A stretch of DNA of 15,995 bases from a virus (lineage: Duplodnaviria; Heunggongvirae; Uroviricota; Caudoviricetes): IMG/VR virus record IMGVR_UViG_2531839661_000011. One strand, 5' to 3'. A program made the position numbers. Each line of letters opens with the position of its first letter. Within the stretch, counting starts at the first letter, position 1. Positions 1 through 6,000 of the stretch are shown here, one piece after another.

Positions 1-3000
1 ATGCCAAAGCTCACAGATATTCAGATCAGGGCATGGATAAAATCAGGTGAACGATTCGAAGGACGGTCAGATGGCGGTGGCTTATACCTTCGTTACCGGA
101 AAGAAGACCAGATACCAACATGGCGATTCCGCTACAAATTCGCAGGAAAAGCACGGGCAATGGTCATTGGCTCCTATGCTGATTACTCGCTATCAAAAGC
201 CAGAGAAACAGCAAAGGAACTATCCGCTCGCGTCGCACTTGGGTACGACGTAGCAGCAGAGAAACAGGAGCGTAAGGCCGAAGCCCTGGCAAAAATTGAG
301 GCAGAAAAAAAGGCCGTGCGCGTATCAGAGCTTGCTGCCGAATATTTCGAACGTCAGATACTGCCACGATGGAAACATCCCGACATCCTGCGCCGTCGCA
401 TCGACAAAGACATAAACCCGCGTATTGGTCATATGAAGGTTGAGGACGTAAAACCACGACACATTGACGAGATGCTAAAGGCAATTGTTGACCGTGGAGC
501 GCCAACCATTGCAACGGACGTTCTGCGATGGACGCGCCGCATATTCGACTACGGGATAAAACGTCATGTGCTGGAGATTAACCCGTGCTCGGCGTTTGAA
601 GTCTCTGATGCTGGTGGCAAGGAGTCATCCCGCGATCGCTGGCTGACCCGTGAAGAGTTAATCCGGTTCTTTCAGGCCATGCGTACCGCAAAGGGATTCA
701 GCCGACAGAACGAGCTAACCTTCAAGTTGCTACTGGCGCTTTGCGTCAGGAAGATGGAGTTGTGCGCCGCCAGATGGGAAGAGTTCGACCTTGATAACGC
801 CGTGTGGCATTTGCCAGAGGAACGCAGCAAAAACGGCGACCCCATAGATATTCCACTTGTTCCCCCCGTTATTGAATGGCTGAAAGAACTGCGCGTCTTG
901 TCATGCAATAGCGCGTGGGTACTTCCGGCGCGGAAAATGCAGCACAGGATGATCCCCCACATTCAGGAGAGCACCCTACCCGTTGCACTGCAAAAAGTTC
1001 GCGCAGAGATGCCGGAGGTTCCAGATTTCACTATTCACGACTTCCGTCGTACAGCACGCACACATTTAGCCGCGCTTGGTGTTGATCCGGTAGTCGCTGA
1101 AAGATGCCTCAATCACCGCATCAAGGGAGTCGAGGGCATATACAATCGCTATCAGTATTTCGATGAACGGACTTCGGCGCTGGCGAAATGGACCAATCTG
1201 TTAGTGTCGCTGGAACGCGGGGAACGCTACAACGTGACACCAATCAGAAGGGCCAAAGCATGATTAATATCCTGAAAAAATCGCCAATAGAACGCCTGTG
1301 CGCTTCTGTTTCAATCACTCCGCACGAAATGGCCCTTGCACTGGCTGGCCTTAATCCGTCAATGAGAATAGGCGACGTGCCGCAGGACAAGTTCGAACAG
1401 GTCGAATCAGCCAGAACGATGATAGCCCGTGCTATCTGGTTGCATAGCGGCAGGAAAGCGGGAAAGGATGAGCCATACAGAGCGGGGGATATATTCCTTG
1501 CGTCCTTCCCGTTCATTGAGGCAGGAACGCCAGAGGCAATAATTACGGCGGTAACTGATGCCATTGATGATTTACGAGGAACAAAAAATTGGGAAGAAAA
1601 AGCACTTAATCTTGGTGGGCGGCGGCTGGTCAGCCACATCAAAGAAACAAGCCGCAGCGGAAGGGGGCAGTACAGGAAACTCGACGAAGAACAGGGAAAC
1701 ATGAAGATGATGGGGTTGCTGGTTTTACTGCTCGTGAAGAAATCAGGCACAACCGCATACATTCAGGACGGAGAACCAAACCGTTCAGCCATTTACCGCG
1801 ACGTGGAAGCGCTGATGAAGGAGAAAGGGATATCGCCAAAAGGGATCGCCAAATCCACGTTTATGCAAAAAATATCAGCCGCATTACTGGCAGTAAGCCA
1901 GGCAGATTAACCAGCCAACACGCCCTGTATTCACGGGGCTGCAATCCCCATACATCCCCCACCAGCAAAATTTACTCACCGTTCTTAGTCGTTATAAATC
2001 GGTATAAACAGGATTAGCACGTTAAAGACTGGCAAAAGATGGCAAAACATAACAACGCATAACGGCGCAGTAGGAGTATTACGGTATCAGAACGTATACG
2101 GCTTCAATGACTTATCACCAATAAAGCAAAAACTTTCAAAGTTTTAGCACTCCATCCCGCCTGTTCAATCTTTTACTGGAAGTGTGTTTTTTCAATAGAT
2201 TTTCGGAAAGTTTTAATAGATTCCAGATTTGGTGGAATGCTGTACAAACAACCAATAGAATGGAGAAAACATCAACTTTTAACCCATGAGGGAATCATGA
2301 CAGCTAACCATCAAGAAGCTATCCCTACCACGGGCTATATCCGCCGCTGCAACCTGGCTAAGTTGCTTGATACCAGCGTGTCAACTATCGACCGCTGGGT
2401 GCGTATCGGCAAATTACCGAAGCCCACGAAGCTGGGGGAGAAAAACACCGTATTTAATGCGGTGGAGATCAACCACTGGCTGAACGAGCGCCGCAACAAC
2501 ACCAAGCAGTAATCAGCATGACGGGCGTACAGTTCCGCGCCCGTCAGCACCAAACCTGATTCTACAGCAGGAGTTTTTAATGAAACGTCCGAATATGCCC
2601 GTACAGGGGCAGGGCTTCGTTCAGCCTGAAATCAGCCAGAACGATATATTGATTCGCCACAAAGCGGAGTCGCGTATTGATTCCCGCGTTATTTCTGAGC
2701 GAGCAGGAATACAACACGAAAGTATCATTGCGACGATTAAATCTCATCAATCCAGATTGCGCGAGCTTGGCTCACTGCCTCGCCAGTCAGTCAAGGAATT
2801 AACCTATTTGAAATCGGGAAAACCTGGCCGCAAGCGCGGTCGTCCTGAAATTAGTTATTTGCTGAATGAGCTACAGCTTGACTATCTGTTACGCGTTATC
2901 CGTGGGCGTGACGCAGAACGTATCAACCAGTTCAAGCTGGATGTTACAAAGGCATTCGCGAAGCATCGCGCCGCTGAACCAGTCCGCCGCGAATATCTGC

Positions 3001-6000
3001 CAGGCTATCACGAAAGCCGTGACGGACTCAAAGCACTGGGCGCAGAACGTCACCATTACATTAATCTGGCACGCGCAGAGAACCGTGTTACAGGTCTGGT
3101 GGCTGGAGAACGCAGCACAGCCAGCGAGCAACAGTTAGGCTTACTGATAGTCATGCAGAAAATCGAGCAGGCAGCATTTGACGAGGCGATACAGAGCGGC
3201 ATGACACCGACCGAAGCGGTGCGGGAGGTTGCCTGCCGCATGGAGACGTTCGCCAGCCTGATGACGTCAGCGCCGTCTCTGGGGGTGAATCATGCGTAAT
3301 TATGTTATCCCTCCCAATCATGAAGGCGGTTATATTTATGTGGCGCTTTCTGACATTGGATTAGTTAAGGTTGGAAAAACCAGAAATGTTTCAGCCAGAA
3401 TGAAACAGCTATCCACTGGTAGCGGCATAGTAATCACTAAAGTCGAGGTGTTAGGGCCATTTGTTAATTACGGACAAGTCGAATTAGCTATTCATGCAAA
3501 ACTTACATCAGAACGCCGTTCTGGTGAGTGGTTTTCTGCTGATTTTGATACGGTTAAAGCAATTGCTATCGATACATCAGGAATAGGTACTCCTGGTGCG
3601 GAATTAGTTAACAACGATGCTTATCGCTACGAACGCGTGTTTTTATGGTTTAGTGCGCATGAGGAACAAATTAAATACGAACAAGCACTTTGCGAAATAT
3701 TATCTGATACGGCAATTAACTTTCTTAAGGAGTATGGCACAGCTTGCGCCCCATATGTTGCTTTATGTATTCACACAATGGGGGGTGTAACTCTTCAACA
3801 GGGACAAAAGGCCTACTCTGTATATCCTTGTGGATTTAAAGAGTCCACATTGGATCAGTTAAGGGAGGATTGGAATAATTTTGCAGATAAAGATATTTTC
3901 GAAGACTCTGATTTTGATGATTTTCTTATAGACATAAGTGATAAAGATAAATTTAAGTCAGAAGCTGAGGAATGGAGAACTGATGCAATAAATAATCTTT
4001 TCACAGAACTCACCGATGATTACCAGCGCTGGCTGGCCCGTCGCATGGGAGAGCATGAACATGCCTGACATCCTCAAACCTGCTGTCCGGTACATCGACA
4101 CGGCGGATAAGTTCGCACTACTGAACATCAACCATGCTGATTACATGCGCCATATCGTGAGCCATTTCGCCGCTGAGCGCATGAAACACGTTAAGCATTA
4201 TCAGAAGGAGGCTTTATCAAATTATCGCACTGGTGGCCCTGTACGGCGCGAATATCCGCATGATGCAGGAATGGCAGGCAAAACAAAGGCGACCACGAAA
4301 GGGTCGCCAGTGGAGATAAAGGAAATCAAGCGCATCACCAACTATGCCATGAGTGTAGCTGGTGGACAATGCTATCAGCCAGGCGGTCGGTTTTTAGTGG
4401 CTTTTAACCGCCGTGGGTATTTCTCGACAAAATCTTCAAGGGCAAATTTTTTAGCTTTTGTATGTGATGCCTTTGACTCGTCATCACATGTTTTTCCGCG
4501 CCTTATCCTGTTTTCAATAAAACGGGAGGCGGCCTTTTTATTCAGCGATGAATCAATGGGGCTGCTCCCTGTTTGCTGCTCGACAATGGCATCCATGAGT
4601 AGTTGGTGTTGTAGTTGTCGTAAAAATTTCTCATCTTCTGGTGGTAAATCCATACTTATTTCCTGTACAGCGGAGCGACGCAGCACCTCACACCACGGCG
4701 CTGATGGTTGTTATTCGTTTTATGGAGTCAAAGAAGCAAAAGCGGATCGCTATCGGTTTTTAGGCGAGATTAATCGCCGTGGGTATTTGTCCAGAAATGC
4801 CTCAAGCGCAAATCGTTTTGGTCTGGTGAGAGGAGAGGGATTAAGCAAAGACTCACGTTCCAGGCGTACTTTTTCGCGCTGGCGCTCAAGTATGGATAAT
4901 GCGATTTCCTGTAATTCTTCATTTGTCATTGTCTGTACCCGTAAAGCGGTGCGCTGTAGTACCTCATATCACAGCGCAGGTATTTTTTATGGTTGTAATT
5001 TGCGTGATGATTCAGGTCGCTTTGCGACATACTGCATAAACATAAATAACGTGATGTTATTATGTGCTTTCAAAGAAAACGCAGGTATTTTTCGCACAAA
5101 CTTCTCTCGCAACACATCCGACCACTTAAGCAAAAAAGCGGCATATACTGAGGCTATCCCTTATAAAACGGGGATCGGGCGTAGGAACCCGTTTAACTGT
5201 GAGGCGACAAATGACGCCAGAAGCGTCTTTTTTTCTGCCAGCGATTTACGCCATATCAATGGTGTTGTGCATTGTGCGTACCCGTGCACCATCCAGTCAT
5301 TTCACGAGTTGCATTTTGCACAGCGCCACCAGCAAACAATGGTGATGCTGGCGGGGCTACCGAAAGGTAGGCCGGAGTCCTTACAGTCCGGTATTCCTAC
5401 CCCCGCCAGTGTCACCGCCCTGTGTGAGCGTAGGAACTCCAGCGGTGACGTTATTTATCACTGTAAGGAGGCTGCCACTATGGCTACTACCCCTACCCTG
5501 GTACATTCTCAAACCGCCTTCATCTGGCGCTTTATCACTGTTGGCACGTCAGAACGTCAAATCATCCACGTAACCGCCTGGACGGAACTCGAAGCGCGTA
5601 ACCGTTGCCCGTCAGGTTGCGTTGCTGTATTCGCCGCCCGTATCCGTCAGGAGGCATCACATGGATAAAAACATGTTGATCGCCTCTTCTTTCGGGCTGT
5701 ATGATGCCGGAGTCGCCCACATGGCGACCGGGTTTAGCAGCCTGAATAAATTGGCGGACAGCCGCCCATATCCGATAAGCGGTTTTTTTGTGTCCGTAAA
5801 CCTACCCATACCCGCATTATGGCGGGGCGTAACGGGGGAGCCTTTGCGCTCGCTGGTTTCCCAATTTGCCAGTCTGCTAACCCTGTTACGTCTCGCCACC
5901 ACGTTTAGCAGCGTAGTAGCGAGACTCCTTAACATTAAATTGGGAGCCTTTCACATGGCTGTATCCGCACGCCCTTACTTTGTCTGGCGCTTTATGCAGT

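Follow-up and report, generated by a model that had tools for sequence, protein, structure and literature searches.

Between the alpA-type regulator and the replication genes of an apparent phage satellite of Escherichia coli lie two overlapping open reading frames (ORFs), and the question raised by this locus is whether they are partners in one system or neighbours that are exchanged independently. The DNA analysed is the 15,995-nt IMG/VR record IMGVR_UViG_2531839661_000011 (Caudoviricetes), referred to here over its whole length as the window. ORF1 is predicted to encode a Rha-family regulator, and ORF2 a protein with an N-terminal T5orf172 (GIY-YIG-type) domain; a first-pass annotation had described them as a coupled functional pair. 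The evidence gathered here suggests that both genes are probably cassettes of the variable 'Bro zone', located between alpA and the replication genes of a P4-related satellite, the Bro zone being one of four ordered zones described by Mageeney et al. (2023) in Gram-negative phage-inducible chromosomal islands (PICIs; PMC10111431). ORF1 would be the common backbone gene of the island family, and ORF2 a rare, AT-rich and horizontally exchanged cassette occupying the slot that elsewhere holds an AntA/AntB gene.

Distribution of ORF1 and ORF2

It was verified that the two ORFs overlap by exactly 8 nt, and that both domain calls made in the first-pass annotation are recovered by profile searches. 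Residues 13-92 of ORF2 matched the Pfam families T5orf172 with 39.5 bits (cut-off 20) and MUG113 with 43.7 bits (cut-off 22.3). ORF1 matched Phage_pRha (PF09669) over positions 1-87 of the 91 in the profile with 29.0 bits (E 1.7e-6), narrowly missing the gathering cut-off of 29.9, and this assignment is backed by matches to PHROG 2657/518 (Rha-like regulator), by precomputed PF09669 hits on most of the 120 ORF1 homologues listed, and by the name 'Rha family' given by the Prokaryotic Genome Annotation Pipeline (PGAP).

The two genes differ greatly in abundance. ORF1 homologues form at least 220 protein clusters of 56-95% identity across Enterobacterales, with hosts in Escherichia, Salmonella, Klebsiella, Citrobacter, Hafnia, Edwardsiella, Yersinia, Xenorhabdus, Providencia, Proteus, Pantoea and Erwinia, whereas the ORF2 family comprises 10 clusters among 5.8 billion. 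In the survey of 5,426 complete E. coli genomes, the Rha gene was found by nucleotide similarity in 77 and ORF2 in 23, where it was single-copy, chromosomal and intact in every case and never annotated as a pseudogene. Rha lies directly upstream of ORF2 in 21 of these 23 carriers, two of the Rha copies being truncated by insertion sequences, and the Rha-linked islands fall into only two types: that of the window (13 genomes) and a second (8 genomes) whose ORF2 allele has about 86% nucleotide identity and is followed by a frameshifted Bro-N gene.

Outside these two types, none of the nine loci with ORF2 homologues has an adjacent Rha gene. They comprise homologues of 41-53% identity in other genera and two E. 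coli alleles of 84-88% nucleotide identity, and their arrangements vary: alpA is followed by T5orf172 in two E. coli loci (L017, L018) and overlaps it by 8 nt in two Salmonella loci (L006, L007), a small ORF precedes T5orf172 in L008 (Providencia) and L019, and T5orf172 is followed by ORF6N in L009, by Bro-N/Ash in L020 and by Ash in L021. Conversely, Rha occurs without T5orf172 in Citrobacter (L010), in Providencia (L011-L013), in L014, in L002 and in most E. coli islands; in L010 and L011-L013 it follows alpA and is succeeded directly by the Ash/immunity region. All ORF2 homologues examined were nevertheless found 3′ of alpA (from which a single small ORF separates some of them) and 5′ of Ash, in islands with the order int, alpA and primase.

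These distributions bear directly on the explanation that Rha and T5orf172 make up a two-gene system dedicated to anti-phage defence or helper interference, Rha being the sensor or DNA-binding subunit and T5orf172 the effector. The 8-nt overlap and the adjacency in the E. coli carriers would fit such a system, and, since viral T5orf172 domains are often fused to DNA-binding domains of the Bro-N/KilA-N type (PMC8096241) and ORF2 has none of its own, a split version is conceivable; a weak match of ORF2 to the candidate defence system PDC-S57 in PADLOC points the same way. However, no conserved association of the two genes was found among divergent homologues, given the nine Rha-free ORF2 loci and a Rha gene that is far commoner and usually accompanied by AntA/AntB or by nothing. 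The overlap syntax, moreover, recurs at all operon junctions, and the PADLOC match covers only the generic domain at residues 23-91. A dedicated Rha-T5orf172 system is thus largely refuted by gene distribution and very unlikely, and the coupled functional pair proposed at first is not supported by the comparison of homologues. It is considerably more probable that ORF1 and ORF2 are independent, swappable cassettes. Of two outcomes named beforehand as speaking against a coupled system, an absence of profile matches did not occur, as seen above; the other was borne out in so far as ordinary genes of antirepressor families (AntA/AntB, Bro-N, ORF6N) otherwise fill the slot. The earlier remark that the pairing is not a named system still stands.

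The exchangeable slot and its junctions

Sister islands whose flanks are about 95% identical to the window hold an AntA/AntB gene or its remnant at the position of ORF2. Aligned with one of them (L002), the window diverges at 3305, after four common codons, and rejoins at about 4029, before 13 common final codons. Compared with another island (L003), 22 mismatches occur in the 200 nt after 4032, corresponding to about 11% divergence from 4033, and this jump places a recombination breakpoint at 4033, in the tail of the gene. Additionally, a 707-nt core of ORF2 is 100% identical across islands whose primases differ (D5-type in the window, DUF927 in L003).

Composition agrees with these edges. 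ORF2 has a GC content of 0.40 and 0.305 at third codon positions (GC3), compared with 0.53 and 0.54 for Rha and 0.51 and 0.53 for the primase, and no other stretch of the window is as rich in AT: the 724-nt core at 3305-4028 has a GC content of 0.39, the lowest equal-length stretch elsewhere 0.406, and the window mean is 0.488 (standard deviation 0.036). The final 57 nt of ORF2 are back at 0.60 and, on sequence, belong to the backbone. Judged by the sharp shift in composition, the cassette edges at 3305 and about 4028 and the breakpoint at 4033, ORF2 is a separately acquired gene, as its AT-richness had suggested in the first-pass annotation. Other arrangements of the slot were also observed: Rha, AntA/AntB and Bro-N in succession in L014, AntA/AntB alone after alpA in L016 (O157:H7), and, in L015, Icd attached without an intervening gene to one of the AntA/AntB type.

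The junctions themselves follow a common syntax. Overlaps of the form ATGNNTRA occur at four junctions of the window (3292/3299, 4061/4068, 5661/5668 and 6118/6125) and in eight other loci, and they are preceded by a protein tail ending in HA or a similar tail. Since the overlap is found at every operon junction, it is a property of the slot and not the mark of an ORF1-ORF2 partnership. The cassettes are also framed by conserved ends. A 17-residue leader, MKxxxxPVQGQGFxxPE, corresponding to codons 1-17 of ORF1 (2580-2630), is borne by the first gene of the slot whatever its family, being found on the unrelated Rha, AntA/AntB and T5orf172 proteins from E. coli to Providencia (L014, L004, L016, L017, L018, L009, L008, L010, L011). 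At the other end, a tail of the pattern QRWLARRMxxxxHA precedes the stop codon, and the tails of ORF2 and of the O157 AntA/AntB protein are identical (QRWLARRMGEHEHA before the stop). In the Salmonella locus L006, the final eight residues of alpA, RLTGGDHA before the stop, are repeated at the end of the following T5orf172 gene (8001-8008 and 8833-8840), so that the same junction sequence stands on both sides of the cassette, as expected if the cassette was inserted by recombination at the junction motif.

Table 1. Coordinates of annotated and predicted features of the window
Feature	Position	Strand	Remarks
Integrase (int)	1-1263		
Conserved hypothetical gene	1260-1910		overlaps integrase stop by 4 nt; PHROG 30524, E 2e-31
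alpA-type helix-turn-helix (HTH) regulator/excisionase	2297-2512	+	end of integration zone; Pfam HTH_17 and Phage_AlpA above cut-offs; coding sequence in PGAP
GC-rich 10-bp hairpin	2519-2546	+	directly 3′ of alpA stop; no T-run; GACGGGCG...CGCCCGTC
ORF1	2580-3299	+	Rha-like DNA-binding regulator, 239 aa; backbone gene of island family
ORF1/ORF2 overlap	3292-3299	+	8 nt; ATGCGTAA
ORF2	3292-4068	+	258 aa; N-terminal T5orf172/GIY-YIG domain and acidic C-terminal domain
Exchangeable AT-rich cassette core	3305-4028	+	replaced by AntA/AntB sequence in sister islands
GIY-YIG-type (T5orf172) nuclease-like domain	3328-3585	+	ORF2 residues 13-98
Acidic C-terminal domain	3625-4059	+	ORF2 residues 112-256; acidic motif within 3904-3954
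Backbone tail	4029-4068	+	...WLARRMGEHEHA before the stop; in frame in T5orf172 and AntA/AntB genes; holds Shine-Dalgarno-like GGGAGAG and ATGCCTGA
ORF2/next-ORF overlap	4061-4068	+	8 nt; ATGCCTGA
Long 'Ash/Icd-like' ORF	4061-5668	+	reads through first immunity unit; PGAP start 4016, conserved start ATG 4061
isrK/seqA-like (isrK/c4-a1b1-like) element, unit 1	5156-5233 (isrK/c4-a1b1-like 5143-5233)	+	Rfam isrK 49.6 bits, E 3e-8
C4/CI-type antisense immunity RNA, unit 1	5335-5422	+	Rfam C4 69.0 bits (gathering score 45)
Second Icd-like ORF	5661-6125	+	joined upstream by ATGGATAA, downstream by ATGCTTAA
Immunity unit 2	isrK-like 5712-5789 (isrK/c4-a1b1-like 5699-5789); C4 5815-5903		inside second Icd-like ORF; C4 73 bits
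D5-type primase	6929-8752		
SSB	9494-9943		
PerC-family regulator paralogues and antiterminator-Q family gene	10387-12082 and 13418-13816		right end of island

The slot has the position and content of the Bro zone. As the first-pass annotation had placed them, ORF1 and ORF2 lie between alpA and the replication module, in the variable accessory slot of an integrase-anchored element, which is where the Bro zone of Gram-negative PICIs, helper-embedded PICIs and P4 is found, between int/alpA and primase/SSB (PMC10111431). Phage_pRha, AntA, Bro-N, ORF6N and Phage_ASH, together with C4 and isrK RNAs, all occur in the window or its sister loci, and the same dynamism is seen; both the position and the combination of Bro-network families with these RNAs were therefore recognised here. 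Two differences can be noted. The ten Bro-network Pfam families found in 3,484 islands (PMC10111431) do not include T5orf172, and the C-terminal domain of ORF2 belongs to no family; none of the papers searched connects a Bro-zone gene of a PICI with GIY-YIG or T5orf172. Additionally, the swapping seen here concerns whole cassettes with overlap junctions and a common leader and tail, which the 'Bro segments' of that paper may already include. The same families take part in the shuffling network of Bro-N, KilA-N, Rha, ANT and T5orf172 attributed to Iyer, Koonin and Aravind (2002; as cited in PMC10111431 and by Netter et al., PMC8096241), in which they co-occur and recombine, and the fold matches of ORF2 include BRO proteins; the domains of that network are usually fused in one polypeptide, whereas in the window they are carried by separate, overlapping genes. 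Near the Bro zone, the T5orf172-bearing islands L006, L007 and L009 (Salmonella and related) also carry a TumE and HVO_A0114 gene pair, and L006 an additional HigB/HTH toxin-antitoxin pair.

Downstream of ORF2, the operon continues into immunity-RNA genes that the first-pass annotation had not covered, like the second 8-nt overlap at 4061-4068; there are two C4/isrK units here, between ORF2 and the primase, and one or two, as it appears, in sister islands. The isrK-like element of unit 1 ends in a hairpin and T-run, with a terminator-like site at 5213-5227. The ORF at 4016-5668 is not an ordinary protein gene: from the start at 4016 or 4061 it has 535-550 codons and an implausible Cys/Ser/Arg-rich translation through RNA genes. 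In the homologue of L015, PGAP itself places the start at the ATGCCTGA overlap. The Phage_ASH match covers residues 377-498 of ORF 4016-5668 (nt 5144-5509) and, because it overlies the isrK/C4 elements, the 'Ash' family may be in part a translation of RNA genes, or else an eta-like ORF held open for antitermination. The same region contains a 75-nt direct repeat of 75% identity (4387-4461 and 4753-4827, 366 nt apart) and a minus-strand ORF of 103 aa at 4375-4686.

A purpose for the overlap syntax is suggested by phage P4. According to the account in PMC10111431, the CI RNA and seqA of P4 lie inside eta, which is translationally coupled to the gene upstream and whose translation prevents termination. 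The window resembles this left operon in having CI/C4-type RNAs and seqA/isrK-like targets within ORFs upstream of the primase, chained by start/stop overlaps, and ORF 4061-5668 is a candidate counterpart of eta by analogy. It differs in lacking psu, delta and sid, in having two tandem immunity units instead of one, and in that Rha and T5orf172 separate alpA from the eta-like ORF. On the model of P4 eta, the cassettes would be expressed from a promoter upstream of alpA, the overlaps would pass ribosomes through them into the ORFs bearing seqA/isrK and CI/C4, and translation across the immunity RNAs would prevent their termination, so that transcription could reach the primase. If such a relay is needed, any inserted cassette must preserve the coupling, and the overlap would be a constraint of the slot. 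The possibility that ORF2 is autonomous, with an internal promoter of its own, was considered and rejected, since a scan of the + strand from 1900 to 5700 found no sigma-70-like promoter. A comparison can also be made with the immI operon of P1 (c4, icd, ant), which likewise combines C4 RNA, Icd-like ORFs and antirepressor-family genes in one overlap-chained operon; however, the antirepressor-family and T5orf172 genes of the window lie upstream of C4/icd, so that ORF1 and ORF2 cannot be under P1-type C4 control and the locus is not of the immI type.

Several observations weigh against this picture of independent cassettes linked by a ribosome relay. Besides the adjacency of Rha in nearly all E. 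coli carriers, the 3′ half of Rha together with ORF2 differs between the window and L003 by a single mismatch in 1,110 nt (2923-4032), which means that the two are currently linked in E. coli and could be co-transferred or cooperate. At the start of the proposed relay, alpA and ORF1 do not overlap and are separated by a 67-nt gap containing a hairpin. Furthermore, several sister islands have a long Ash ORF that is interrupted or carries a pseudogene annotation, so that an intact relay may not be essential, and the relay idea itself rests on the analogy with P4 eta.

The ORF2 protein and its possible function

ORF2 carries the motif set of the GIY-YIG superfamily. Nine family members share invariant Y16, K26-V27-G28, T30, R36, E64 and E79-W80-F81, with G13-Y14-I15-Y16 as the GIY-type motif; roles for these residues (the Tyr of the GIY type, the Gly of YIG/KIG, the Arg about 8 positions beyond it, and the catalytic Glu) were assigned from knowledge of GIY-YIG/I-TevI together with PMC10448857. 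The AlphaFold2 model of the protein (mean predicted local distance difference test, pLDDT, 80) shows an N-terminal beta-beta-alpha-beta-alpha topology, and Foldseek related it to predicted viral T5orf172, GIY-YIG and BRO proteins, the BRO proteins being from baculovirus and ascovirus (E 6e-6 to 1e-3), its matches to the solved structures 1zg2, 1ywl and UvrC 1ycz being weak and non-significant (E 0.4-5). The ratio of nonsynonymous to synonymous substitution rates (dN/dS) was 0.06-0.13 in the N-terminal and 0.20-0.33 in the C-terminal domain; ORF2 is thus a maintained protein-coding gene under purifying selection on both domains.

The C-terminal domain, which the first-pass annotation had already called acidic and uncharacterised, has kept that description. 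The C-terminal 162 residues have an isoelectric point (pI) of 4.4, and the acidic motif DSDFDDFLIDISDKDKF occupies residues 205-221 (nt 3904-3954). The domain is modelled (pLDDT 83, predicted template modelling score 0.74) as a helical bundle, a three-strand beta-meander and a long terminal helix. No family was found for it in Pfam, NCBIfam or PHROG; against the PDB, a sequence profile search returned one chance match, and Foldseek neither a relative nor a DNA-binding fold; and its profile recovered, among 1.84 billion representatives, only two true family members and three repeat-protein artefacts (P0132-P0134). Outside the ORF2 family, neither sequence nor fold comparison thus detected a relative of the domain, which is unlikely to bind DNA. 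Comparison by hhalign of ORF2 found nothing in common with Rha, and with AntA/AntB only the 20-residue tail.

Two candidate identities of ORF2 were set aside. A close phage origin was rejected because a megablast search of 50,697 phage records with the interval 2200-4300 returned nothing, and because the tblastn matches to phages (Vibrio phages, Mx8) had only 32-35% identity and were confined to residues 5-98. A known defence system was likewise rejected, as the only match in a defence database was at domain level: the best PADLOC hit, PDLC05041 (candidate PDC-S57; E 1.4e-8), aligns residues 23-91 with positions 18-89 of a 212-position profile, and by this alignment it reflects the generic T5orf172 domain only and not full-length PDC-S57.

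T5orf172 is a GIY-YIG subfamily of glutamate-dependent nucleases, which includes homing endonucleases and the anti-satellite nuclease Odn and has been co-opted in phage-satellite conflicts (PMC10448857, PMC8096241). ORF2 shares the domain and the conserved glutamate motif with the homing endonucleases of ICP1, with Odn and with odn-like genes of E. coli phages, and it belongs to the same satellite-helper arena. However, the ICP1 and Odn nucleases are phage-encoded and have a zinc-finger or RepA_N DNA-binding domain, and CapR is satellite-encoded without T5orf172, whereas ORF2 is satellite-encoded, with its nuclease domain at the N-terminus and an acidic domain without relatives in place of a DNA-binding domain.

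One explanation for the spread of such a gene is that ORF2 is a selfish, homing-endonuclease-like element that cuts ORF2-free Bro zones and spreads by recombinational repair, with no benefit to the satellite. T5orf172 is the main homing-endonuclease family of ICP1-like phages, where it is found at recombination boundaries (PMC10448857), and nuclease-driven mobilisation of Bro genes has been raised before (PMC10111431); ORF2 itself is AT-rich, rare and patchy, its identical core in islands with different primases ends in a divergence from L003 at the 3′ edge of the cassette, and seemingly 'empty' junctions exist, with Rha directly followed by Ash in L010 and the AntA/AntB-type gene directly on Icd in L015. 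On the other hand, ORF2 does not combine a nuclease with a sequence-specific DNA-binding domain, as a homing endonuclease would, since no such domain is recognisable and the C-terminal domain, besides its low pI, has no known DNA-binding fold. It also replaces a gene in frame instead of being inserted between genes. As to empty sites, the picture is mixed: L010 offers a cassette-free Rha and Ash junction, and the closest sister islands hold AntA/AntB in the slot. Moreover, homologues of 41-53% identity keep the same position in Salmonella, Providencia and others, and this positional conservation, together with purifying selection and the lack of pseudogenes among the 23 genomes, suggests long-term retention for a function. 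The selfish explanation is therefore regarded as unlikely.

A slightly less improbable alternative, still with the odds clearly against it, is that ORF2 does not cleave at all and is a regulator or antirepressor equivalent to AntA/AntB, binding a helper repressor or promoter like P4 epsilon or the CapR protein of PLE, an element resembling a phage-inducible chromosomal island. It sits in the AntA/AntB slot with a tail in common, its stand-alone homologues bear the same leader, and its neighbours are the antirepressor-network families Rha, AntA/AntB, Bro-N and ORF6N; the acidic domain could conceivably mimic DNA and bind the DNA-binding surface of a repressor. There are also precedents, as CapR is a homing-endonuclease-derived protein domesticated as a repressor in a satellite (PMC8096241) and in the E. 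coli PICI EcCIMP1 a conserved 'antirepressor' lies beside Ash and primase (PMC11773190). CapR, however, keeps the DNA-binding domain and not the T5orf172 domain, ORF2 has no homology to AntA/AntB beyond the 20-residue tail, and its catalytic-motif residues are invariant within a nuclease domain that is the most constrained part of the protein (dN/dS about 0.1), which would be unexpected if catalysis were dispensable.

For ORF2 as a cassette of the satellite, an anti-phage or helper-interference function is possible. The most likely role, proposed tentatively, is that of a nuclease or DNA-targeting effector produced at island induction, which would act on the DNA of helper or competitor phages or stimulate recombination, with the acidic domain serving in oligomerisation or partner binding. 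More speculative, and rather doubtful, is the wider proposal that ORF2 founds a satellite-specific lineage of active T5orf172 nucleases, locked in the first slot after alpA in the int-alpA-primase satellites of Enterobacterales, which at induction would cut helper or rival phage DNA, mirroring Odn, or drive cassette exchange, the C-terminal domain being a partner-binding or DNA-mimicking targeting module. Counting against the tentative nuclease role is that a site-specific GIY-YIG nuclease would not typically combine an acidic C-terminal domain with the lack of any domain for DNA binding.

The surrounding island and its significance

The window matches E. coli O43 RM10042 and ten further complete genomes at 100%, as an island of about 15 kb flanked by yicC and dinD of the E. 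coli chromosome; related islands occupy the same or other attachment sites, and no tRNA attachment site was found near this one. Its genes are ordered as integrase, hypothetical, alpA-type HTH gene, Rha, 'GIY-YIG nuclease', 'Icd-like/Ash', three small ORFs and D5-type primase, followed by a hypothetical gene, SSB, ProQ/FinO, PerC paralogues and antiterminator Q. It thus combines int, alpA and primase in a discrete insertion of satellite size, and no phage structural genes are annotated in it; psu, sid and delta are likewise absent from the annotation. The element is interpreted as a P4-related, PICI-type phage satellite without psu, sid and delta, because of its gene order, its two C4 RNAs, its isrK-like elements and its TGTTCACC array. 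Identity with the PICI EcCIEDL933 is not claimed, as that island is treated in papers on capsid-forming PICIs and no capsid genes are annotated here.

The array consists of eleven octamers TGTTCACC (5 forward, 6 reverse) at 8766-8995, immediately 3′ of the primase gene and absent from the rest of the window, in a region that folds with z = -10. In P4 this octamer is the ori1/crr iteron, to which the alpha primase binds, a further likeness to P4, and 8766-8995 is for that reason probably the replication origin of the island. At the other end, the hairpin 3′ of alpA, identical in the O157:H7 island L016 and lying in a region (2500-2640) that folds with z = -3.6, is possibly an RNA stability or attenuation element. 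The hypothetical gene at 1260-1910 recurs 3′ of the integrase in sister islands and belongs to a PHROG family without a function. As for the PerC paralogues at the right end, PerC-like genes carried by E. coli PICIs are reported to modulate the expression of LEE, the enterocyte effacement locus (PMC11773190).

Phage satellites influence both the epidemics of phages and the transfer of genes in enterobacteria, also in Shiga-toxin-producing E. coli, among which are the island-bearing O145 and O43 strains. It was already known that the zone between alpA and the primase varies and abounds in Bro-network genes, almost none of which has an assigned function. What is new here is a rare nuclease-type cassette with an uncatalogued domain, the surrounding zone itself having been described before. 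The locus offers a clean case of cassette exchange within a fixed scaffold of common leader, ATGNNTRA junctions and common tail, and it suggests a purpose for that scaffold, namely to keep ribosomes running into the immunity-RNA region. If ORF2 does cut phage DNA, satellites and phages would wield the same nuclease family against each other.

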